Shown here: one piece after another, positions 21,586 to 31,063 of the stretch
Position numbering within the stretch: position 1 is the stretch's first letter
Layout: every line of letters starts with the position of its first letter
Assembly (NCBI GenBank): GCA_044238855.1
Contig: JBIICO010000002.1
Location: 9,269-73,268, forward strand
DNA from: Caulobacter sp.
GTDB taxonomy: Bacteria > Pseudomonadota > Alphaproteobacteria > Caulobacterales > Caulobacteraceae
Length of the DNA stretch: 64,000 nucleotides
Direction of reading: 5' to 3'
Translations under genes and position numbers: made by a program
The notes under the pieces: generated by a model
Told to the model about the DNA's origin: nothing
Database searches by the model: none
The model's input: the letters and a program-made list of their open reading frames with translations, nothing else

Positions 21586-22206
21586 TCAGCCGGCCATCGC
21601 CGACGCCATCCCCACCCGCCGGTAGATCAGCGCCTCGGCGACATGGAGGCGTTTGACGCTGTCCGCGCCGTCGAGGTCGGCGATGGTTCGGGCCAGGCGC
21701 AGGGCCCGGGTCCAGCCTCTGGCCGTCAGATGGCCCGCCTCCGCGGCGCGGCTCATCAGGGCGCGGGCCGCCTCGTCCAGGCTCGCCGCCTTCTCCAGGA
21801 AGTCGCCGTCGGCGCGGGCGTTGATGGCCGGCGCGCCCTCGCCCCAGGCCAGCGCCCGTTCAGTCTGGGCCGCGCGGGCGGCCGCCACGCGGGCGGCGAC
21901 CTCGGCCGACCCTTCCGAGGGCGGGGGCAGGGCCAGGTCGGCGGCGCTGACTGGCGGCACGTCGATCTGCAGGTCGATGCGGTCGATCAGCGGCCCCGAG
22001 ACGCGGCCCTGATAGTCGCGCTGGCAGCGCGGAGCCTTGCCGCAGTAGCCTTTCCCCGGCCCGCCATGGCCGCAGCGGCAGGGATTCTGCGCCGCGACGA
22101 GCTGCACGCGCGCGGGGTAGCGGATGTGCGCGTTGGCGCGGGCGACCATCACCTCGCCGGTCTCCAGCGGCGCGCGGAGGCTGTCCAGGGCCTGGGCGCT
22201 GAACTC
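21586..22206 (-). pseudogene. comM: comM/yifB (Mg-chelatase-like AAA+ ATPase), 3' fragment, cut by a transposon
   Basis: Translation PEFSAQALDSLRAPLETGEVMVARANAHIRYPARVQLVAAQNPCRCG... is the ComM C-terminal half. Upstream of the junction the ORF reads out of the element's inverted repeat. Confidence 0.9.
22199..22206. repeat. target-site duplication, left copy (CTGAACTC)
   Basis: Identical 8-mer at 30084..30091, directly abutting the inverted repeats. Confidence 0.9.
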
Positions 22207-22233
22207 CGGAATCCGGTAGCAAACACACCCAAA
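22207..22233. repeat. terminal inverted repeat, left (CGGAATCCGGTAGCAAACACACCCAAA)
   Basis: Perfect 27/27 reverse complement of 30057..30083. Confidence 0.92.
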
Positions 22234-22269
22234 CACGCGAAGTTAAGATGATCGCCGCACGGTTGTGCG

Positions 22270-22812
22270 ATGGGTGGGCAGCGTCAGACCAAATTCCTTA
22301 CGGATGAATACAGGCGCGTCATGGGCGATCTGGAGGCCGTGGCGCATCGCGTGGATGAACTTAGGCCGGCCGCCGACGAGTTTCGGCGGCGACAACAAGA
22401 AGCGATCGTCTTGCGCCAGAAGCTCGAAGCAATGGCGATCACTCTTCGCGTGCTTGATGGCTCTTGGGTGGAACCAGAAGTTCCGATGAAGCGAAGGAAG
22501 CGGCCTTGGGGCGATCTTCCTACGGGCGCGTTTATTCGCACCGCTTTGAGGGTGCTTGGCACCTCAACAGAACCATTAAGCGCGGCTGAGATCGCCGAAA
22601 TTGTAGCGCCGCGCGTCATGCCGGGCCGGGAGTTTTCATCCCATGAGATGGCTCATATCGCTACCGTGATCAGATGCTCTCTTCGAAGACGAAGAAGCCT
22701 CATCCGCGTGACCGGCACCCATCCTCTGCGGTTCGCGCTAAACCTCTCTAGCCGGGGCGCCCCGCATAGTCCCAATAGTTCGTCCACCGGCGCGACTGCG
22801 GGCTGTGACTGA
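22270..22812 (+). CDS. hypothetical protein, end-proximal and inward-facing (paralog of 29553..30014)
   Basis: 180-aa ORF. Coiled N-terminal half, then ...IRTALRVLGTSTEPLSAAEIAEIV..., which aligns with the right-end ORF (...VFKALREAKEPLTSRDIALRL...). The last ~22 codons overlap the transposase 3' end. Confidence 0.6.
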   Translation: MGGQRQTKFLTDEYRRVMGDLEAVAHRVDELRPAADEFRRRQQEAIVLRQKLEAMAITLRVLDGSWVEPEVPMKRRKRPWGDLPTGAFIRTALRVLGTSTEPLSAAEIAEIVAPRVMPGREFSSHEMAHIATVIRCSLRRRRSLIRVTGTHPLRFALNLSSRGAPHSPNSSSTGATAGCD

Positions 22813-23701
22813 CGGCGTCCAAGAGCTTGGTGAACAGTTCGCCGTTGCCGATCCGGTTATGAGTCTCTCGCCACGCCATCTCGACCGCGTAGGGTGACAG
22901 GTGCTTTCCTGCCAGACGATGGTGGATACCGATCGCGGACCGACGCATTCGCGAGAAGAAGCTCTCAGCTTGGTTGGTGTTCGCTTCAGCGGTGGCGTAG
23001 CCGAACTTCGAGTGATTGATCCGCGACATTTCGTGCGTCGCTTCTAGATCATTCCAGGCGCTGGCCTCATCCGCGAAAACGTGGGCCGTCTTGCTAATGT
23101 TGGCGAGAAGCGTGTTGTAGGCATCTACTTCCCTCGGCACGACAAACGCTCGGGTCTCGCCCTTGCGCTGCTTCATAACCACGACGGTCCGCCGATCTTT
23201 TTCCACCACCATCGAGTGGCGTCGTTTCGCCACCTCGTTCTTCTTCCGGCGCTTGCCGCCAAACCCGGCGCCGTCGATCTCGACTTCCCCGGTGAGCAGA
23301 TGGGCGCGCACCACAAAGGACAAAGATTCTCGCATTTTGTGCTGTTGGACGAAGATCGACTTCGCTTGGACATCCAGCGTTCGGGACATCTCCAGTGCAG
23401 CCCGCCCCTTCGCTCCGTTGACGAAGTGGCCCATAGCATAGAGGTAGTCTCGGAGTTCTAGTTTGTGGTGACCGAAAGGGGTCCCAGACGTAGGCGAGAA
23501 CTGACGCCGGCAGGCGGCACACTTGAAGATTCGGACCTTCTTCACGCCGCTCTTAAGTCGGCGGTTGATAGTCATCTCGTAGATGCGGTCGCCTCCGCAG
23601 CCCTTGTGCGGGCAAGTCGGCTTGCCGCCGTTTTCCTTCCAGCGACTGGCGATGAAGAGGTCAACCGCTTCGTCTTCCGACATCCGTCGGAGCCATTTCA
23701 T
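22748..23701 (-). CDS. IS1595-family DDE transposase (N-terminal zinc ribbon + ISXO2-like domain)
   Basis: MKWLRRMSEDEAVDLFIASRWKENGGKPTCPHKGCGG...FKCAACRRQFS zinc ribbon. Catalytic-region motifs VEIDGAGFGG, VFADEASAWNDL, NTNQAESFFSRMRR. Confidence 0.85.
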   Translation of the reverse strand: MKWLRRMSEDEAVDLFIASRWKENGGKPTCPHKGCGGDRIYEMTINRRLKSGVKKVRIFKCAACRRQFSPTSGTPFGHHKLELRDYLYAMGHFVNGAKGRAALEMSRTLDVQAKSIFVQQHKMRESLSFVVRAHLLTGEVEIDGAGFGGKRRKKNEVAKRRHSMVVEKDRRTVVVMKQRKGETRAFVVPREVDAYNTLLANISKTAHVFADEASAWNDLEATHEMSRINHSKFGYATAEANTNQAESFFSRMRRSAIGIHHRLAGKHLSPYAVEMAWRETHNRIGNGELFTKLLDAVSHSPQSRRWTNYWDYAGRPG

Positions 23702-23972
23702 ATCGAGCGTGCGCGCAGCAGCGGATTCCAGGAAGTGTCCACCGACACTTCCATCTGGCCTCCTCTTCCTGCGACGCGCTGAAGGCACGCGATTGCTCCG
23801 CCGTCGCCGGATGTGGCGACGTCGGGGCTAGTGCAGGAGTTGGACCCGCGTTTCGTGACTCAAGTGGCTGATTTTGCGCCAGATGTTGGCGTTCGACCGT
23901 CCGAAACGTGACTCCTTAGCCCACCTTCTGGCGGACCGAATCCGTGTCTCAAAAAGGAACGGTCAGAAGAGG

Positions 23973-24515
23973 CTATTGCGAAGCTCGGGCCACGCCCTTG
24001 CGCTTAGGCGGCTCCTCGAAATCGAACACATAATCGCCGCCCTGCACCTTCGCTTGCGCTTTCTTGAAGGCCCACTCGGGTGAAGGAGGAGAAGACATCC
24101 TGACGGCATCCATCCGATCCATCAGTGCCTCGAACTCCGCCTGGAATTCTTCGTATGGCGCCTGTGAGCGGATTTCGGCCGCTTGGCGGAAGCGGTCCCG
24201 AAGGTTGGTGAACTCTCCGGCAGATCGGGCTATCTCGACCACCTTCATGTCCATGTTCAGCGACACATAGATCGCTGGGAAGAACCCCGCCAACATGCCG
24301 CAGAATGCGCCGGCGAGCTTTCCGGCGTCTGAGCCAAATTCGAGAAGAATCTGTGAGCTAGCGAGGCCGCCCAGGATCACCGGCGCTATTAGGAACATGG
24401 CCCGCCAAGTGGTCGCGTGCTTCTGCCAGATGTAGAGCGCCGCGCTCGTATAGGTGCAGGACTCGGCTTGCCGTTTGCACTCTGCGATGAGGGGTTCGGT
24501 TCGAGGGTCGGTCAT
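23973..24515 (-). CDS. SLATT-like two-TM effector protein
   Basis: N-terminal helix with Cys (CKRQAESC), then two adjacent TM helices (WRAMFLIAPVILGGLASSQILL; LAGAFCGMLAGFFPAIYVSL) and a helical tail. The ATG overlaps the SMODS stop (ATGA). Confidence 0.7.
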   Translation of the reverse strand: MTDPRTEPLIAECKRQAESCTYTSAALYIWQKHATTWRAMFLIAPVILGGLASSQILLEFGSDAGKLAGAFCGMLAGFFPAIYVSLNMDMKVVEIARSAGEFTNLRDRFRQAAEIRSQAPYEEFQAEFEALMDRMDAVRMSSPPSPEWAFKKAQAKVQGGDYVFDFEEPPKRKGVARASQ

Positions 24516-25390
24516 GGGTACTTCGGGATGTAGGTTCCGAATATCTTCTGCCATTCGTCGCCGGCGCTACTCCAGTGCGAATTGGACTCGTAAGAGCAGG
24601 CCTTCTTAGCGCGTTCTAGAGCCGATTTTGCCTTCGATTCCCAGCCGCTCCCAACGCTCATGCCCTCACTGGTGCCAGGGGCGAAGACCCACCCACCCAC
24701 GTTGTTCACCATGTACTGGAGGAAGTCGCGCACCATCCAGTCGTAGTAAAGTTTGCCTTTCCCTCGGTGCTCCCAGCCGTTCAAGAACGTGACGGCCATA
24801 AGCTCGATGTGGAATGACTTTATTGGCACCGAACATTCGCTTTGCCAGCATTTCATCATGCGGACTAATTCGCGCGTGTTGCCCGACGTATTGGTGTTCG
24901 AAGTAGATATGTTTGTCGCCTCTGCGGCGTAATCCGCCTTCTTGTAGTGTCCGCCGCTGTCGGTCATGCAAACCCAATGACCGCCCCCTTCCAAGGCGAA
25001 CGCGGGAATCACCTCGACGTTGAAGGCGGTGAACGGCACAACGACGACCGGTCCATCCCCTCGGATCGCAGTGTTGGGGTAGGCGGCTGAAAGAACATTC
25101 CTGACCTCCTGAAGGAGTTGGGACTGCTTGTTGCCGAGGCGTAGCTGGTACCGATCGTACACAGCCCTTGGGAGCGAAAAGAGGATGTCGACATCCCGAG
25201 GCGGCCGTATCCGGGTCAGCTTCGCCCAAGACCCCACGAAGACGGAGTTCGCCGTCCTGTTGGTTGACGACCAGTAGTTCCAGTTCAGCGTGCCGACGAC
25301 GCTTTCACGCCTTTCGCCGCCTTTTGTAACTTGGTCAGGCGTCAAGGCGATGTTTTCCAGGAATGTTTCGAAGCGCGCCTTCACGCTCAT
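24512..25390 (-). CDS. SMODS-type nucleotidyltransferase (CD-NTase-like second-messenger synthase)
   Basis: N-terminal FETFLENIALT, the pol-beta NTase signature GSWAKLTRIRPPRDVDILF (GS...DxD) and a third acidic residue in NVEVIPAF. About 292 aa. Confidence 0.75.
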   Translation of the reverse strand: MSVKARFETFLENIALTPDQVTKGGERRESVVGTLNWNYWSSTNRTANSVFVGSWAKLTRIRPPRDVDILFSLPRAVYDRYQLRLGNKQSQLLQEVRNVLSAAYPNTAIRGDGPVVVVPFTAFNVEVIPAFALEGGGHWVCMTDSGGHYKKADYAAEATNISTSNTNTSGNTRELVRMMKCWQSECSVPIKSFHIELMAVTFLNGWEHRGKGKLYYDWMVRDFLQYMVNNVGGWVFAPGTSEGMSVGSGWESKAKSALERAKKACSYESNSHWSSAGDEWQKIFGTYIPKYP

Positions 25391-25529
25391 GGTGTTTTCT
25401 CGCTGCGAGGGAAGAAAGCGAATCGGCATCACTCGATTTTACCTCAACACAACCTACCGGCGCGAATCCGCACAGACTCGCACAGATAGAAGGGGCTGCT
25501 GGTGACGTGATCGTCGCCAGGAGGACCGT

Positions 25530-26267
25530 CTAGGAATCAGTCGAACCCGGCACGTACAATTTGGCGAGCTTGGCGACCTCCTCGACGCTGATAACGGCGC
25601 CTGGGTCTCGCTGAGAAAACATCGTGTCGAAGAGCGCGTGGATCACAGGCTCGATATCCGGGATCGGCGTGTCGAGATTACGCGCGAACGCGGTTCTGAT
25701 CCGCTGACCCGGCTCCACCTGCCGCACTAACATTTGAAACTCATGCCGGGGCGGCAACACGGTATCGCTGTAGTCGGAAGGCAGCGTCTCCGCCTCCCCA
25801 GGGAACGCTGGCCTGAGACGATGCGACCGGTCTCGGTTCTCAGCGAACCATGCCGCATCATCGGATTTCCATAGTGAAGGCAGCACGTTGACAGAGGACC
25901 GGGCCGTGGAAATGCCTGCTCGGTTTGACGCATCATCGGCCACGGCGTCGACGTTGGCGAAGAAGGTTTGGAACGCATCGACGGCGCCTTCGATATCTTC
26001 TGGCTTCTTCCGCTTCTTGCTTACCGGCTGGGCAATTCCCGACAGAACGTCGTACGTGCGGCCCACGTAGAGGCCTTGTCCGACGCCGTACTCCAGCCTT
26101 GGAAGGCAGCACTCACCAAGGACGACGGCCGTCCCTGCGGTGCTCCGTCCGTAGAAAGTCTTCTCGTTGTGCTGGAAAGGCCGGCGACAGATGTTGCAGT
26201 TGTCGCCATCCGACTGGATGACCTTTTTGATCTCGCGATCAATCCGACGACGCTCCGCTCGGTTCAT
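25530..26267 (-). CDS. hypothetical Cys-rich protein
   Basis: ATG at 26267 is preceded by GGAGG 8 nt upstream. MNRAERRRIDREIKK...CNICRRPF...GECCLPRL. No family recognised. Confidence 0.6.
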   Translation of the reverse strand: MNRAERRRIDREIKKVIQSDGDNCNICRRPFQHNEKTFYGRSTAGTAVVLGECCLPRLEYGVGQGLYVGRTYDVLSGIAQPVSKKRKKPEDIEGAVDAFQTFFANVDAVADDASNRAGISTARSSVNVLPSLWKSDDAAWFAENRDRSHRLRPAFPGEAETLPSDYSDTVLPPRHEFQMLVRQVEPGQRIRTAFARNLDTPIPDIEPVIHALFDTMFSQRDPGAVISVEEVAKLAKLYVPGSTDS

Positions 26268-26392
26268 GAAGCAAGCCTCCGAAGAATGGGCGACCCAGCT
26301 AGAGGCCGGGTCGCCCACATGTTATTCCGGTTGAGCGTAAGACCCGACTCTTCCCCGATGCGCTGTTTTTCAACGCTACAAGGAAAAAAGCC

Positions 26393-26524
26393 ATGTCTTA
26401 CACCTTCCAGATCGGACGAGATGCCGAGACGGGGGAATTTATTCCCCTCTCTGAAGCCCGTCGTCGCAAGACGACGGCGGTAGTCGAAACGATCAAGGTG
26501 ACGAAGCCGAAGCGCAAGCGCTAA
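26393..26524 (+). CDS. small basic protein (43 aa), paralog of 29092..29217
   Basis: MSYTFQIGRDAETGEFIPLSEARRRKTTAVVETIKVTKPKRKR. Too short for the ORF track. About half its residues are identical to the second copy. A hairpin follows it. Confidence 0.5.
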   Translation: MSYTFQIGRDAETGEFIPLSEARRRKTTAVVETIKVTKPKRKR

Positions 26525-26610
26525 GGCGGGACGCACGGCGGCAGCCAGCTACACCTGGCTGTCGCCACTTGACTCCCCAGAGTGGCAGATTTCCCTTAAA
26601 AGTCAAGAAA

Positions 26611-26829
26611 TTAGGTGAATTCCGGTCGCTGTAGAAGCGCCAGTGGATCAACTCCTAGAACCTGGGCGAACCGTTCCACGACATCCAGGGTCGGGTTTCG
26701 AGTGCCCCGCTCGATCTGACCGACATAGGTGACGGCAAGCTCGACCTCGTCGGCCAACGCCTCTTGGCTCAGCCCGCGTTCCTTACGCAGCCGGCGGACA
26801 TTGGTCCCGAAAATCTGCCCCAATCGCAT
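26611..26829 (-). CDS. XRE-family helix-turn-helix transcriptional regulator
   Basis: 72 aa. ...RRLRKERGLSQEALADEVELAVTYVGQIERGTRNPTLDVVERFAQVLGV is a classic Cro/C1-type HTH. Confidence 0.88.
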   Translation of the reverse strand: MRLGQIFGTNVRRLRKERGLSQEALADEVELAVTYVGQIERGTRNPTLDVVERFAQVLGVDPLALLQRPEFT

Positions 26830-26863
26830 CAGGGCAGGCGCAACGAATCCTCAACTCACAGCC

Positions 26864-26879
26864 AGTCACTATAGTGACT
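26864..26879. promoter_or_regulatory. perfect 16-bp palindrome AGTCACTATAGTGACT (candidate XRE operator)
   Basis: Centred in the 75-bp divergent intergenic region between the XRE gene and 26905..27441. Contains a TATAGT -10-like core. Confidence 0.55.
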
Positions 26880-26904
26880 ATTCAATCTGGGGTGAGGGTT
26901 TGGG

Positions 26905-27441
26905 ATGCCAACGGCGAGACGAGGCGATTGGGCCGGGAAAATCCTAGGCTTCTTCTTCGGCGCCACGATCCTCGTGGTCGTCTCAATCTTCGTCATCGAT
27001 CGTGCGACCGCGATCCTGACACCGAAGCAGTACGCAGCCTCAAAGGCGATGGAGAATGCGGAGGCGGCAGCAGCCAGCGCGCAACAGGCCGAGGTGCAGC
27101 GGAAGGCGGACGCCGCGCAAGCCAAGCGAGACGAAGCCCAACGGAAAGAGGAACTCGTCTTCAACCTCGCATCGGACGCGTTCTCGAACTTCAAGAGTTC
27201 GCTGCGTGATCCGAGAGGGGCGCAGTTCCGGGATGTCTGGGCGGTAAGGGGTCAGCTAAACGGCACGGAGATCATCGCGGCCTGCGGCGTGGTCAACGCG
27301 CAGAACGCCTTCGGTGGCTATACCGGTGAGACGCCCTTCATGGCCGCTGGCAGCTTCATCTACACGCCTGACCATCCGAGTTTCGAGGCCCGGTTTCAGA
27401 CCATTTGTCTGGACGGCAAGAAAGTCATGAAGTTGAAGTAG
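26905..27441 (+). CDS. membrane-anchored hypothetical protein
   Basis: N-terminal TM helix (ILGFFFGATILVVVSIFVI), an Ala/Gln/Lys-rich coiled linker, and a C-terminal domain with LRDPRGAQFRDV...ACGVVNAQNAFGGYTG. Confidence 0.65.
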   Translation: MPTARRGDWAGKILGFFFGATILVVVSIFVIDRATAILTPKQYAASKAMENAEAAAASAQQAEVQRKADAAQAKRDEAQRKEELVFNLASDAFSNFKSSLRDPRGAQFRDVWAVRGQLNGTEIIAACGVVNAQNAFGGYTGETPFMAAGSFIYTPDHPSFEARFQTICLDGKKVMKLK

Positions 27442-27475
27442 CGCGTCGAAGGCCTTCCGTTTGAGCGCAGTCGCG

Positions 27476-28864
27476 ATGAAACCAGATCGGCTCGCAGACG
27501 ATAAGGCGGCGGCGCAATACCTGCGCATGTCCACGACAAACCAGCGCTACTCAATTGCGAACCAAGCACGCGCCATCGCTGCCTACGCGGAAGAGCACGG
27601 CTATCGGATCGTCCGCACGTACAAAGACGCGGGAAAGAGCGGCCTAACTCTGAAAGGGCGAGATGGCCTAAAGGCGCTTATCCAAGACGTCGTGAGCGGG
27701 AAGGCCCCGTACTCCTCGATCCTCGTGCTCGACGTCAGTCGGTGGGGGCGCTTTCAGGACCCCGATCAGGCCGCGCACTATGAATTCCTATGCCGTGAGG
27801 CCGGCGTTCGAGTCAGGTATTGCGCTGAACCGTTCGACGATTCGAACGCACCCATGACGTCGATCATCAAACACATGAAGAGGGTCATGGCTGGAGAGTA
27901 CAGCCGTGAACTTTCGGAGAAAGTGGGGGCGGGCCGTCGACGTATCGCCAGGATGGGGTTCGTCGCTGGTGGGACCGCCTGCTACGGCTTTCGCCGCCTG
28001 CTCATCGACCAGGATGGAAAGCCTCGCTTCATGCTCGATACCGGACAACGCAAGGCATTGAGTTCGGACAGGGTGATCTTTGTCCACGGGCCACCCGAGG
28101 AGATCGCTGTAATTCGCCGAATCTTCCGGATGTACATCACCGATCGATTGCGGATGACCGCCATATCGCGCCGCCTCAATGACGGCGGAATCCCCTCAAG
28201 TTTGGGACATGCCTGGACCGCCGCGAGGGTGAAAACCGTCCTCACAAGCGAACTATGCATCGGCAACTACGTGTTCAACCGAACGGCTATGCGCTTGAAG
28301 GGGAAGCGCAAGACGCTGCCCGAACGAGATTGGATACGGGTCAAGATGATGGACCCGATCATCTCACGCCATCAGTTCAACGCGACCGCGAAGCTTCTCA
28401 AGCTGGGGCAGGTCGGAAAGGTGCTTCGGTCCAACGCCGAGCTTCTCGATCTCCTCCGGCGGCTACTGAAAGAGAAGGGAAGGCTATCCGCCGGAATCCT
28501 GTCGGCCTGCCCTTACACACCGTCGGCAGGCGGCTATCGTGAGCGGTTTGGATCACTCTCCAGGGCCTATGGGTTGATCGGCTACCAGAAGGAATGGGGC
28601 ATGTCGTTCAGGACCAAGGAGGGACGCGTAGCCTCCAATGAGGACCTTCTTGATGCGATGAAACGCCTGTGGAGCCGGCGCGGCTATCTTTCGACAGCGG
28701 TCATTCGCGATGACCCCGACCTTCCAGGGATTAGCTGTATTCAGAAGCGTTTCGGGTCGCTTCGTGATGTCTACGCCCTAATCGGACACCCCGTCTCGCA
28801 CAGCGAAATCATCACGGCGACACATGCCCGGAACCGAGCCATCCGTGCGGCGGCTGCCCGATAA
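27476..28864 (+). CDS. large serine recombinase
   Basis: Resolvase catalytic domain (AAQYLRMSTTNQRYSIANQ..., catalytic Ser), a recombinase domain, and a tandem C-terminal ~50-aa repeat ending RFGSL..Y.LIG. ATG 27476 (TTG 27461 is possible). Confidence 0.88.
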   Translation: MKPDRLADDKAAAQYLRMSTTNQRYSIANQARAIAAYAEEHGYRIVRTYKDAGKSGLTLKGRDGLKALIQDVVSGKAPYSSILVLDVSRWGRFQDPDQAAHYEFLCREAGVRVRYCAEPFDDSNAPMTSIIKHMKRVMAGEYSRELSEKVGAGRRRIARMGFVAGGTACYGFRRLLIDQDGKPRFMLDTGQRKALSSDRVIFVHGPPEEIAVIRRIFRMYITDRLRMTAISRRLNDGGIPSSLGHAWTAARVKTVLTSELCIGNYVFNRTAMRLKGKRKTLPERDWIRVKMMDPIISRHQFNATAKLLKLGQVGKVLRSNAELLDLLRRLLKEKGRLSAGILSACPYTPSAGGYRERFGSLSRAYGLIGYQKEWGMSFRTKEGRVASNEDLLDAMKRLWSRRGYLSTAVIRDDPDLPGISCIQKRFGSLRDVYALIGHPVSHSEIITATHARNRAIRAAAAR

Positions 28865-29091
28865 GCGCCTGGGCCACCGACGCCGTCGTACTGCCGGTCG
28901 TCACCACTCAGCCATCGCAAAGGAAGCAATCGACAACATGGTTCGGGAACGGGTTGCAGCCGTCGCCGCCCGCCCGGCGTGAAACGCCTCGGGCCGAATG
29001 TCGTTACTTTGCGGATTCACAGGAAGAATCGACTGCGCTACTGAAAGGGCGGCGCCCCGGCTGCACACCAAAGACGCCGCCCCCGTGACCA

Positions 29092-29217
29092 CTAGCTCTT
29101 ACGCTTTGTGGGCACCTTCACAGTCTGGACGTAAGCCGTCGCCTTGCGGCGGTTAGCTTCCGCAACCGGAATGATCTTCCCGGTCTTGGCGTCCTTCCCG
29201 ATCTGACGGGTAGCCAT
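29092..29217 (-). CDS. small basic protein (41 aa), paralog of 26393..26524
   Basis: MATRQIGKDAKTGKIIPVAEANRRKATAYVQTVKVPTKRKS. GGAGG lies about 10 nt upstream, and a GC hairpin (29047..29082) followed by a T-run lies downstream. Confidence 0.6.
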   Translation of the reverse strand: MATRQIGKDAKTGKIIPVAEANRRKATAYVQTVKVPTKRKS

Positions 29218-29379
29218 TTGCACATCACCTCCAATCCGGGGCCGTTGCCCCTCGTCACAGGCTCAGACCTGTGGATTGAGTGATCGCGTCCAGCGACTCG
29301 CCAGACGCGTCTTTTAGCGACCTTCGTCGGAAAAGTTGAGTCGGAGCAAAACCTTGGTCCTCATCGACCTTTGGTGCAC

Positions 29380-29556
29380 CTACCCCACGAGATTGATTAG
29401 GCGCCGAGCAACTTCGCCCCGCTCGATGCCCCGGACAACGACCTGACCGTCGCGAATACCGACGTAGCCCTCCCCACCCGCGTAGGCCGGTGCGATCAGA
29501 TAAGTCCGCCGGCCGCGCGTGAAGCGGATCGGTTCCGGGAGTCGGGGCCGGATCAT
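29380..29556 (-). CDS. hypothetical 58-aa protein
   Basis: The ATG overlaps the stop of 29553..30014 (ATGA). MIRPRLPEPIRFTRGRRTYLIAPAYAGGEGYVGIRDGQVVVRG... No family recognised. Confidence 0.4.
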   Translation of the reverse strand: MIRPRLPEPIRFTRGRRTYLIAPAYAGGEGYVGIRDGQVVVRGIERGEVARRLINLVG

Positions 29557-30014
29557 TGGTCCAACTCCCAGCCCTGAAGGTTGCCCAGGTTCTCCGCGTT
29601 TCGGACCAAACCCTTCTGCTTCTGGACCCTCAGGCAGGCGCAGATTCGCCTCACCATGATCACCGACAACTCCCTGTCATCGGGGTTCAGGCCGCGCTCC
29701 TTCATCAGCCGCAACGCGATGTCGCGGGAAGTGAGAGGCTCCTTTGCCTCCCGAAGCGCCTTGAAGACGATCCGCGTCACCTCACCCTTAAAGGCGGCGT
29801 GCCTGGGCGGCACCGGCTTCGAGCGGATCGCTTGGATGTCGATGTCGGGATTGAAGATGCGGATCGCTGCGTCGATGTGATCGAGTTCGGCGATCAGATG
29901 CCGGAGCGCGAGTTGGTTGTGCTCGATCTGGCCGGCGATCTCAGCACGCTTTCTTGTGAGGGCGTACAGGACGTTTGGCTGCTCGGTACCGGGCGGGACA
30001 ATGTCGATGTTCAT
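29553..30014 (-). CDS. hypothetical protein, end-proximal and inward-facing (paralog of 22270..22812)
   Basis: 153 aa from ATG 30014, about 70 nt inside the right inverted repeat. Same two-part architecture as the left-end ORF. Confidence 0.65.
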   Translation of the reverse strand: MNIDIVPPGTEQPNVLYALTRKRAEIAGQIEHNQLALRHLIAELDHIDAAIRIFNPDIDIQAIRSKPVPPRHAAFKGEVTRIVFKALREAKEPLTSRDIALRLMKERGLNPDDRELSVIMVRRICACLRVQKQKGLVRNAENLGNLQGWELDQ

Positions 30015-30056
30015 TCCCAAAAACGTAACGGGAACAAACGATTAGGCTAGATGCCC

Positions 30057-30083
30057 TTTGGGTGTGTTTGCTACCGGATTCCG
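30057..30083. repeat. terminal inverted repeat, right
   Basis: TTTGGGTGTGTTTGCTACCGGATTCCG is the reverse complement of 22207..22233. Confidence 0.92.
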
Positions 30084-30091
30084 CTGAACTC
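30084..30091. repeat. target-site duplication, right copy (CTGAACTC)
   Basis: Identical to 22199..22206. Confidence 0.9.
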
Positions 30092-31000
30092 GGGAAGTTC
30101 GTCCAGGAAGAGCACGCCGTTGTGCGCGAGAGAGACCTCGCCCGGCTTAACCTTCAGCCCGCCGCCGGTCAGGGCGGCCATGCTGGCCGAATGGTGCGGC
30201 GCGCGGAACGGCCGGGCGCGGGTCAGCTCGCCGCGGGCGATCAGCCCGGCCACCGAATGGACCATCGATGTTTCCAGCAGCTCCGCCGCCGACAGCGGCG
30301 GCAGGATGCCGGGCAGGCGCTGGGCCATCATCGACTTGCCCGAGCCGGGAGGACCCGAGAACAACAGGTTGTGGCCGCCGGCCGCGGCGATCTCCAGCGC
30401 CCGCTTGGCCTGCTCCTGGCCCTTCACCTCGCGCAGGTCGGGGATGCGACCGTCTTCGCGCAGCTGCCCGGGCCTGGGCTCCGACAGCAGCTGGCTGCCC
30501 CGGAAGTGGTTCACCAACCCGATCAGCGAGCGCGGCGCCAAGACCCGCGTGCCGCCGGCCCAGGCCGCCTCCGGGCCCGAGGGCTCCGGGCAGATCAGGC
30601 CCAGCTCCATCGCCCCGGCCGCCACCGCCGCCGGCAACACCCCGGCCACCGGCGCGATCGTGCCGTCCAGCGACAGCTCGCCCACCGCGGCCCAGCCGTT
30701 CAGGCCGTCCGGCGGGATCACGCCCATCGCCGCCATGATCGCCAGCGCGATCGGCAGGTCGTAATGGCTGCCCTCCTTGGGCAGGTCCGCCGGGGCCAGG
30801 TTCACGATTACCCGCTTCGCCGGCATGGACAGGCCGAGGCCCATGAAGGCCCCGCGCACCCGTTCGCGGCTCTCGCCGACCGCCTTGTCGCCGAGCCCGA
30901 CCAGGACGAAGGCGGTGTCGCCGCCCGTCAGCTGAACCTCGACGTCTACCCGCCGCGCTTCCACGCCCTGGAAGGCCACGGTCACCATCCGCGCGACCAT
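30084..31000 (-). pseudogene. comM: comM/yifB, 5' fragment
   Basis: GGAGG then ATG at 31000. MVARMVTVAFQGVEARRVDVEVQL... includes Walker A GPPGSGKSM and ends ...VLFLDELPEFS. It then reads 3 codons into the inverted repeat, to TAG at 30071. Confidence 0.9.
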
Positions 31001-31063
31001 GCCCCTCCGGCTACAGCGACTGTGACTTATCCACACTCAACCATGAAGGGTGGTAAAGATCAA

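Follow-up and report, generated by a model that had tools for sequence, protein, structure and literature searches.

Type I operons of the cyclic-oligonucleotide-based anti-phage signalling system (CBASS) mostly pair a cyclase of clade D, E or F with an effector that spans the membrane two or four times, and operons that couple a CdnF cyclase to a SLATT6 effector restrict phages at least 10,000-fold in E. coli (bioRxiv 10.1101/2023.05.21.541620). An architecture of two genes, one for a cyclase and one for a transmembrane (TM) effector, is already known and has been experimentally validated for defence. We examined a gene pair of this kind in a 64,000-nucleotide stretch of DNA from Caulobacter sp. 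(contig JBIICO010000002.1, positions 9,269 to 73,268; referred to below as the window, in whose numbering coordinates are given). The pair, which encodes a cGAS/DncV-like nucleotidyltransferase (CD-NTase) of the SMODS type and a putative SLATT-type effector with two TM helices (2TM), is cargo of a transposon that has inserted into comM. An initial annotation made from the letters of the window had named it a SMODS-SLATT, type I CBASS-like module and had placed it in a DDE transposon inside comM. The analysis described here agrees on both counts, and we consider it highly probable that the pair forms a minimal type I CBASS operon, which would act by abortive infection.

Precedents for the vehicle come from two described kinds of element. 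Insertion sequences (IS) of the IS1595 family that carry passenger genes, the ‘transporter IS’, are a known category (Siguier, Gagnevin & Chandler 2009, cited by PMC3129680 and PMC11891212), and the same papers describe ISNha5 as carrying a transcription-regulator passenger. Tn7-like cargo transposons, AbaR and Tn6022, insert site-specifically in comM of Acinetobacter and thereby inactivate this natural-transformation gene (PMC10293859, PMC11014353 and PMC11441513).

The interval 23973–25390 is the exact bracket of two open reading frames (ORFs) on the minus strand. The first (24512–25390) begins with an ATG codon and encodes the 292-residue CD-NTase/SMODS cyclase, with the N-terminus MSVKARFETFLENI; the second (23973–24515) encodes the 180-residue SLATT-type 2TM effector, whose N-terminus is MTDPRTEPLI and which is predicted to form a TM hairpin followed by a helical cytoplasmic tail. 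Minus-strand bases 24515 to 24512 read ATGA, with the start codon of the effector overlapping the stop codon of the cyclase exactly as first annotated, an arrangement that suggests translational coupling.

The motifs by which the cyclase had originally been recognized (GS, then DVD after 11 residues, then VEVIP) are all present: G53-S54 is followed after 11 residues by D66-V67-D68, and later by V125-E126-V-I-P129. In an alignment of 36 homologues with 57–71% identity, the catalytic residues (G53, S54, D66, D68 and E126) and P129 are invariant. The protein matches the Pfam SMODS profile (PF18144) at 103.2 bits, well above the cut-off of 26.5 (2.2e-29), over the whole 164-position model, and the PADLOC cyclase model PDLC00814 at 374.7 bits (7.8e-113), with residues 2–290 aligned to positions 4–292 of 295. 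More than 1,386 homologues were returned by a database protein search at E ≤ 1e-10, and nearly all of the 120 homologues listed are 290–296 residues long, about 291 being typical. Because of these numbers and lengths, the earlier impression that the synthase is short and divergent had to be abandoned; by sequence comparison the protein is a full-length CD-NTase/SMODS cyclase, typical of a large family and not divergent within it.

A profile built from the 36-homologue alignment identified CdnD of P. aeruginosa (PaCdnD) as the best solved relative of the cyclase (4.9e-17). The AlphaFold2 (AF2) model of the protein (pLDDT 94.7, pTM 0.90) has the cGAS/DncV-like two-lobed fold that was anticipated for it, with the catalytic acids conserved, and a Foldseek search of the PDB with that model returned PaCdnD (6p82) as the top match (TM-score 0.81); the best 50 matches listed were all CD-NTases, namely CdnB, CdnC, CdnD, CdnE, CdnG and DncV. 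These results also bear on whether the protein could instead be a pol-beta nucleotidyltransferase from outside CBASS (an MNT-type antitoxin, or an enzyme resembling CCA-adding enzymes) that happens to lie beside an unrelated membrane protein. It does match the NCBIfam model of the archaeal CCA-adding enzyme, weakly (22 bits against a cut-off of 281), because the pol-beta core is shared; its scores with the SMODS and cyclase models are far higher, all 50 of the listed structural matches are CD-NTases, and the pairing of the cyclase with a 2TM protein is conserved (see below), and we regard this alternative as effectively refuted.

PaCdnD (strain ATCC27853; PDB 6P82, 6P8J and 6P8U), the best match by both profile and structure, belongs to a type III system and shares the layout of catalytic motifs with the cyclase described here (300 versus 292 residues). 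The two proteins are just 19–22% identical, however, and PaCdnD is activated by a HORMA protein and regulated by a TRIP13-like ATPase, whereas the present locus encodes neither and has a 2TM effector. With respect to clade, what can be said of our cyclase is that this nearest solved relative, ∼21% identical, is a clade-D enzyme.

A Kyte–Doolittle hydropathy scan of the effector located hydrophobic segments at residues ∼36–58 and ∼66–86 with polar helical flanks, in keeping with the two adjacent TM helices and flanking helices noted at the outset. The same two-segment layout is found in orthologues of the effector, and orthologues 61–64% identical to it are encoded directly 3′ of orthologues of the cyclase. 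The effector matches two PADLOC models that have no curated cut-off, Effector 2TM (PDLC00706; 205.5 bits, 1.2e-61) and a reverse-transcriptase-associated SLATT model (44.9 bits, 2.5e-12), and lies marginally above the cut-off of NCBIfam SLATT_4 (55.8 versus 55 bits). No solved structures with meaningful similarity to the effector were found. Because these profile matches occur together with a TM hairpin, we assign the 180-residue protein as a SLATT-type 2TM effector, whose formal profile membership is marginal.

An alternative start codon for the effector, the ATG at 24554 (which would yield a 193-residue ORF), was rejected because the PADLOC model begins at residue 3–4 of the protein that starts within ATGA; the ATG at 24554 is probably not a real effector start. 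Upstream ATG and GTG codons in the effector frame were dismissed as a by-product of conserved Glu-Trp codons (GAR TGG), which encode part of the C-terminus of the cyclase and are here read out of frame. At loci L001–L082 of the comparison described next, many ORFs of effector orthologues likewise seem to begin 43 nucleotides upstream, within the cyclase gene (24516–24554 in the window), which is an artefact. Such false upstream starts could mislead gene callers.

To place the pair among its relatives we used 83 loci encoding relatives of the cyclase, of which 80 came from GTDB representative genomes. A homologue of the 2TM protein was found by tblastn immediately 3′ of the cyclase at 57 of the 83 loci, where the two genes overlap or are separated by a few nucleotides at most. 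When the 83 loci were scanned for ORFs, most intact cyclase homologues proved to have after them an ORF of ∼160–215 residues with hydrophobic segments, usually two, and such an ORF is still present after the cyclase at several of the loci that lack a tblastn match. The junctions of orthologous pairs are overlaps of 4 nucleotides (ATGA) or 1 nucleotide (TGATG), or gaps of a few nucleotides; both the pairing and the coupling are conserved. Because the cyclase has more than 1,386 homologues and a 2TM homologue lies directly downstream at 57 of 83 loci, the two ORFs can be taken as real genes rather than chance ORFs.

At none of the 83 loci does any of the eight remaining island genes adjoin a cyclase homologue, two distant helix-turn-helix (HTH) matches excepted. 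Domains of Cap2 and Cap3 (E1/E2/JAB), HORMA, TRIP13 and type IV ancillary proteins were absent from nine transposon ORFs, each of which was compared with at least one of three libraries (Pfam, PADLOC and NCBIfam; two small backbone genes, orf58 and orf155, were left out of the PADLOC comparison). Comparative evidence therefore indicates that the functional unit is the two-gene pair, and because it lacks ancillary CBASS genes we classify it as a minimal type I CBASS operon. It resembles in this respect the EcCdnF04-SLATT6 and EcCdnD12-4TM operons (bioRxiv 10.1101/2023.05.21.541620), in which a CD-NTase is likewise joined to a small TM effector with no Cap2/3 or HORMA/TRIP13. Gene order, tight coupling and an effector of the SLATT superfamily are common to our pair and to type I 2TM/SLATT operons, whereas the effector of EcCdnF04-SLATT6 is a SLATT6 protein and the one described here is family 4-like and transposon-borne.

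At several of the compared loci (among L013, L025, L027, L057, L062, L071, L073, L077, L078, L080 and L081) the gene for the cyclase or the effector is cut short or frameshifted, which suggests that decay of such CBASS loci is frequent. L013, from a metagenome-assembled genome labelled Exiguobacterium profundum (a Firmicute), holds a copy of the cyclase with 59% identity that may reflect either transfer or binning contamination.

Upstream of the pair, and also on the minus strand, lie orf245 (25530–26267), situated 5′ of the cyclase, and a gene for a 72-residue Cro/C1-type HTH regulator (26611–26829; Pfam HTH_3, 7.3e-17). All four genes are co-directional, and a larger unit can be envisaged in which the cyclase is controlled by orf245, the HTH protein or both, acting as sensor or as regulator in the manner of CapH/CapP. 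The HTH protein weakly matches PADLOC capH (9.4e-13), amid many generic HTH matches, and the product of orf245, which has four invariant cysteines (C24, C27, C53 and C54), is confidently folded in its AF2 model (pLDDT 91.6). That model found no match in a structure search of the PDB and BFVD, and the sequence none in Pfam, PADLOC, NCBIfam, PHROGs or a PDB profile search; nothing resembling a peptidase or a HORMA protein was matched. The ∼63 homologues of orf245 (in Rhizobium, Pseudomonas, Herbaspirillum and Sphingobium) always occupy neighbourhoods that resemble mobile elements or defence islands, 5′ of unrelated genes, and orf245 is found at 0 of the 83 cyclase loci. The HTH gene is near a cyclase homologue at 2 of the 83, not adjacent to it at either, and is instead conserved along with the backbone of the transposon, being 46–77% identical in three related elements (L089, L090 and L093, discussed below). 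In view of this lack of co-occurrence, orf245/262 and the HTH protein were both rejected as CBASS accessories, whether CapH/CapP-like or sensory, and we think a larger unit quite unlikely. From these comparisons orf245 is not a conserved CBASS component, and the HTH gene is a semi-conserved transposon gene rather than a CBASS-specific partner. Nor are the HTH gene and orf245 related to a pair of genes, encoding 72 and 259 residues, that precedes the Phenylobacterium montanum system.

The mode of action that we propose for the minimal type I operon takes its trigger, its nucleotide product, ligand binding by the effector tail and pore formation or membrane disruption by analogy from established knowledge of CBASS. 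Upon phage infection the 292-residue CD-NTase would sense a cue, possibly a late virion-assembly cue such as has been reported in other type I systems, and its pol-beta active site (G53-S54, D66, D68 and E126) would convert nucleoside triphosphates into a cyclic di- or trinucleotide. The effector, presumably translated by termination-reinitiation at the ATGA overlap and thereby held at a level tied to that of the cyclase, would form a two-helix hairpin within the inner membrane. Binding of the nucleotide by its cytoplasmic helical tail would cause it to oligomerize or open, membrane integrity would collapse, and the infected cell would die ahead of phage release.

Several observations weigh against this proposal, or against particular parts of it. 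The effector scores 18.2 bits with Pfam SLATT_4, below the gathering threshold of 27; the expectation that SLATT profiles would recognize it is thus borne out by the PADLOC 2TM model and only marginally by NCBIfam SLATT_4, and fails for Pfam. The cyclase scores 106.4 and 53 bits with the NCBIfam equivalogs CBASS_cyclase_a and CBASS_cyclase_b, both below the cut-off of 200, and by its sequence it appears to be a CD-NTase of a subfamily other than these two. The closest cyclase homologue among the matches listed is just 71% identical. We found no account in the literature of nucleotide binding by the tail of any SLATT protein. The activation mechanism of PaCdnD would not be transferable either, because that enzyme is HORMA-regulated and a HORMA gene is absent here. 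Finally, simple scans detected neither a sigma-70-like promoter nor an intrinsic terminator for the operon, a result that is itself uninformative.

The element that carries the pair is a 7,877 bp segment (22207–30083) bounded by perfect 27 bp terminal inverted repeats (TIRs). The left repeat, CGGAATCCGGTAGCAAACACACCCAAA, occupies 22207–22233 on the plus strand and the right repeat, its perfect complement, 30057–30083 on the minus strand; 0 matches of this kind are expected by chance. Immediately outside them are the two copies of an 8 bp direct target-site duplication (TSD), CTGAACTC, at 22199–22206 and 30084–30091. Profiles and reconstruction identified the flanking sequences as the two parts of a minus-strand comM gene: the 5′ part (30084–31036) encodes ChlI and the N-terminal half of Mg_chelatase, ending in LFLDELPEF, and the 3′ part (21586–22206) encodes the C-terminal half of Mg_chelatase and Mg_chelatase_C. 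In silico deletion of 22207–30091, corresponding to the element and one copy of the TSD, restores an uninterrupted comM ORF of 522 residues that reads through GVLFLDELPEFSAQALDSL. The GC content of the transposon is 59.4%, versus 70–72% in its flanks.

Within the repeats, at 22748–23788 on the minus strand, is the gene for a DDE transposase of the IS1595 family with an N-terminal zinc ribbon, 346 residues long from a GTG start (311 residues in the source annotation, from the ATG at 23683). It exceeds the cut-offs of both DDE_Tnp_IS1595 (PF12762; 110.3 bits, 1.2e-31) and Zn_ribbon_IS1595 (PF12760; 33.4 bits, 4.3e-08), and has 2,117 homologues. Because the TIRs and TSD bound the segment and it encodes this enzyme, we identify all 7,877 bp as a passenger-carrying transposon of the IS1595 family, lying inside comM. 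The CBASS pair sits in a variable slot between the HTH gene and the transposase gene. A large serine recombinase of 467 residues, also encoded by the element (27461–28864, plus strand; Pfam Resolvase and Recombinase, with a weak HNH_repeat match), was considered as the integrator and rejected for the outer boundaries, since perfect TIRs with an 8 bp TSD imply DDE transposition. As a cargo or accessory gene it may have an accessory or nested function (resolution, inversion or a nested element), and L093, a related element, has a copy with 46% identity.

The perfect TIRs and intact transposase argue for a recent arrival of the transposon. They also bear on whether the pair might be an inactive relic that travels as a passive passenger, a view with which the lack of a promoter recognizable by simple scan would be compatible. 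Both ORFs are full length against their family models, all invariant family residues are intact (the catalytic ones included) and the overlap junction is preserved, whereas several homologous loci have cyclase genes that are truncated or frameshifted. We regard a relic as very improbable.

The remaining genes of the transposon comprise backbone genes near its ends and further cargo. Inward from the right end, orf155 (29553–30020, minus strand) probably encodes a coiled coil followed by a winged-helix or HARE-HTH-like domain; it is 68–87% identical in 6 of 6 related elements, more conserved than the transposase, and belongs to a family of 1,825 cluster representatives (E ≤ 1e-3), one member of which matches HARE-HTH (2.2e-6) and another WHD. 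Its product may be a DNA-binding accessory of transposition or a target-selection protein. It is followed by orf58 (29380–29556, minus strand), of which copies with 43–49% identity follow orf155 in the same 6 of 6 elements. At the left end, orf180 (22270–22812, plus strand; absent from the source annotation) is convergent with the transposase gene. ORFs 34–46% identical to it occupy the same position in L089, L090 and L093, and ORFs of 138–161 residues were called there in L092 to L095. Direct BLASTP between orf155 and orf180 was not significant, the sole hint of paralogy being a weak orf155 match on the orf180 equivalent of L089. Another cargo gene, orf178 (26905–27441, plus strand), encodes an N-terminal membrane anchor by hydropathy scan and a C-terminal domain that matches phrog_2320 (8.4e-13), and has a 35% identical copy in L090.

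These related elements come from contigs that encode transposases 58–80% identical to that of the window, and are a small sample in which four to five elements are informative. TIRs of the window type, with 1–4 mismatches, bound L089, L090, L092, L093, L094 and L095, and 8 bp TSDs are present wherever both flanks are visible; five more elements, of which four are distinct, show this layout of TIR and TSD. All share a backbone in which homologues of orf155 and orf58 lie inward from one end, with the transposase gene and a convergent ORF of ∼140–180 residues at the other. A search of metagenome contigs for the exact 22-nucleotide TIR gave no match, and one with a degenerate 25-nucleotide TIR gave only a duplicate of L090.

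The cargo between these end modules is different in every element. In the window, between the junctions at 22199–22233 and 30057–30091, it consists of the HTH gene, orf245, the CBASS pair, the serine recombinase gene and orf178. L090 (2785–8819, in comM) carries genes with ExoX-like_C and YfbU domains; L092 (31–5955, in comM), an AAA_13 ATPase, DUF2321 and DUF3892; L093, SocA_Panacea and a serine recombinase; and L094 (124–6385, in comM), a DprA-like gene, DUF2321 and DUF6680.

This variety invites the alternative that the pair works like CBASS but has been selected for the benefit of the transposon, as an addiction or stabilization module or as a means of attacking rival mobile elements. The pair occupies the variable cargo slot of the transposon family, in which other members carry conflict-type cargo (the SocA_Panacea toxin-antitoxin domain, the AAA_13 ATPase with DUF2321, the DprA-like gene), and disruption of comM, a transformation gene, would shield integrated elements from removal, an idea put forward in PMC11441513. 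The same cyclase-2TM pair nevertheless occurs in dozens of non-transposon contexts, without transposon genes, and moving type I CBASS operons that have TM effectors into E. coli confers phage restriction there (bioRxiv 10.1101/2023.05.21.541620). One role does not preclude the other; as the selected role in place of phage defence, we judge a benefit to the transposon to be rather unlikely, and retain the interpretation of the pair as an anti-phage CBASS operon.

The insertion of the window element in comM is shared with three of its relatives. In the window, L090, L092 and L094 the transposon has entered at the identical comM nucleotide, right after GACGAACT(G/T)CC(C/G), at a point inside the codons for LFLDELPE(F/Y), a conserved Walker-B segment. 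Their TSDs are GAGTTCAG, GAATTCGG, GAATATTC and GAATACTC, and both orientations are represented. L090 and L094 are independent insertions, since the N-terminal parts of their host ComM proteins are 88% identical while their transposases share only 54% identity, and the two elements are oppositely oriented. L089 (3377–8713) lies away from comM, with the TSD CATTTTCG and flanking genes unrelated to comM, and the contigs of L093 and L095 stop 4–5 nucleotides beyond both TIRs, in a sequence ending in ATTC. The use of the same comM nucleotide in both orientations argues for site-specific targeting, and suggests that the transposon family is site-specific for comM and that the insertion described here is not accidental. 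The comM target (CCGAAT(A/T)TC, or CCGAGTTCAG) resembles the tip of the transposon (CGGAAT(C/T)C), and the junctions are near-palindromic, as in GAATTCGG|CGGAATTC of L090; the choice of target may thus involve similarity between transposon end and target.

Compared with the IS1595 transporter IS, the window element has in common a zinc-ribbon DDE transposase, TIRs, an 8 bp TSD, an HTH passenger and a multi-kilobase size, and differs in that its cargo is a predicted anti-phage system and its family inserts repeatedly at one comM nucleotide. The window-type TIR begins with CGGAAT(C/T); the ISNha5 subgroup has ends of the form CGGnnTT and sizes up to ∼7.9 kb, with which the window element would agree. 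AbaR and Tn6022 carry cargo and are comM-specific, as the window family appears to be. They employ TnsABC with a selector of the TnsD/TniQ type, whereas the window family has a single IS1595-type DDE transposase together with small winged-helix-like proteins, and they carry resistance genes where the window family, in alphaproteobacteria-like hosts, has defence cargo. The TSD is 8 bp in the window family and 5 bp in AbaR. No description of comM targeting by an IS1595-like family was found in the searchable literature, which documents Tn7-like elements. At somewhat less than an even chance, we propose that the CBASS pair is one among the interchangeable cargoes of an undescribed IS1595/ISNha5-like family that would insert at a single site in comM in either orientation and carry swappable conflict or defence cassettes flanked by its conserved end modules, its target being chosen either by the winged-helix (HARE-HTH-like) products of orf155 and orf180 or through the similarity between tip and target.

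Taken alone, the CBASS locus changes little, because it is one more member of a well-populated and validated class; greater novelty lies in the transposon family. For the subfamily of ∼291-residue cyclases and SLATT_4-like effectors to which the pair belongs, our searches found no structure, product or trigger, and this large and uniform group is a reasonable candidate for learning how a minimal SLATT effector reads its nucleotide signal. In addition, the locus illustrates cleanly how a defence system can travel on a simple DDE transposon rather than on a phage, an integrative and conjugative element or a Tn7-like element. If the proposed family is real, it would be a compact, single-transposase, site-specific vehicle for defence islands and would represent a new and very compact solution to the targeting of a safe site. 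Disruption of comM would then lower the capacity of the host to remove the element by transformation. With the Tn7-like AbaR/Tn6022 elements as the first, the family would be a second transposon lineage to have converged independently on comM, and would lend weight to the notion that integrated mobile elements gain from the loss of transformation.

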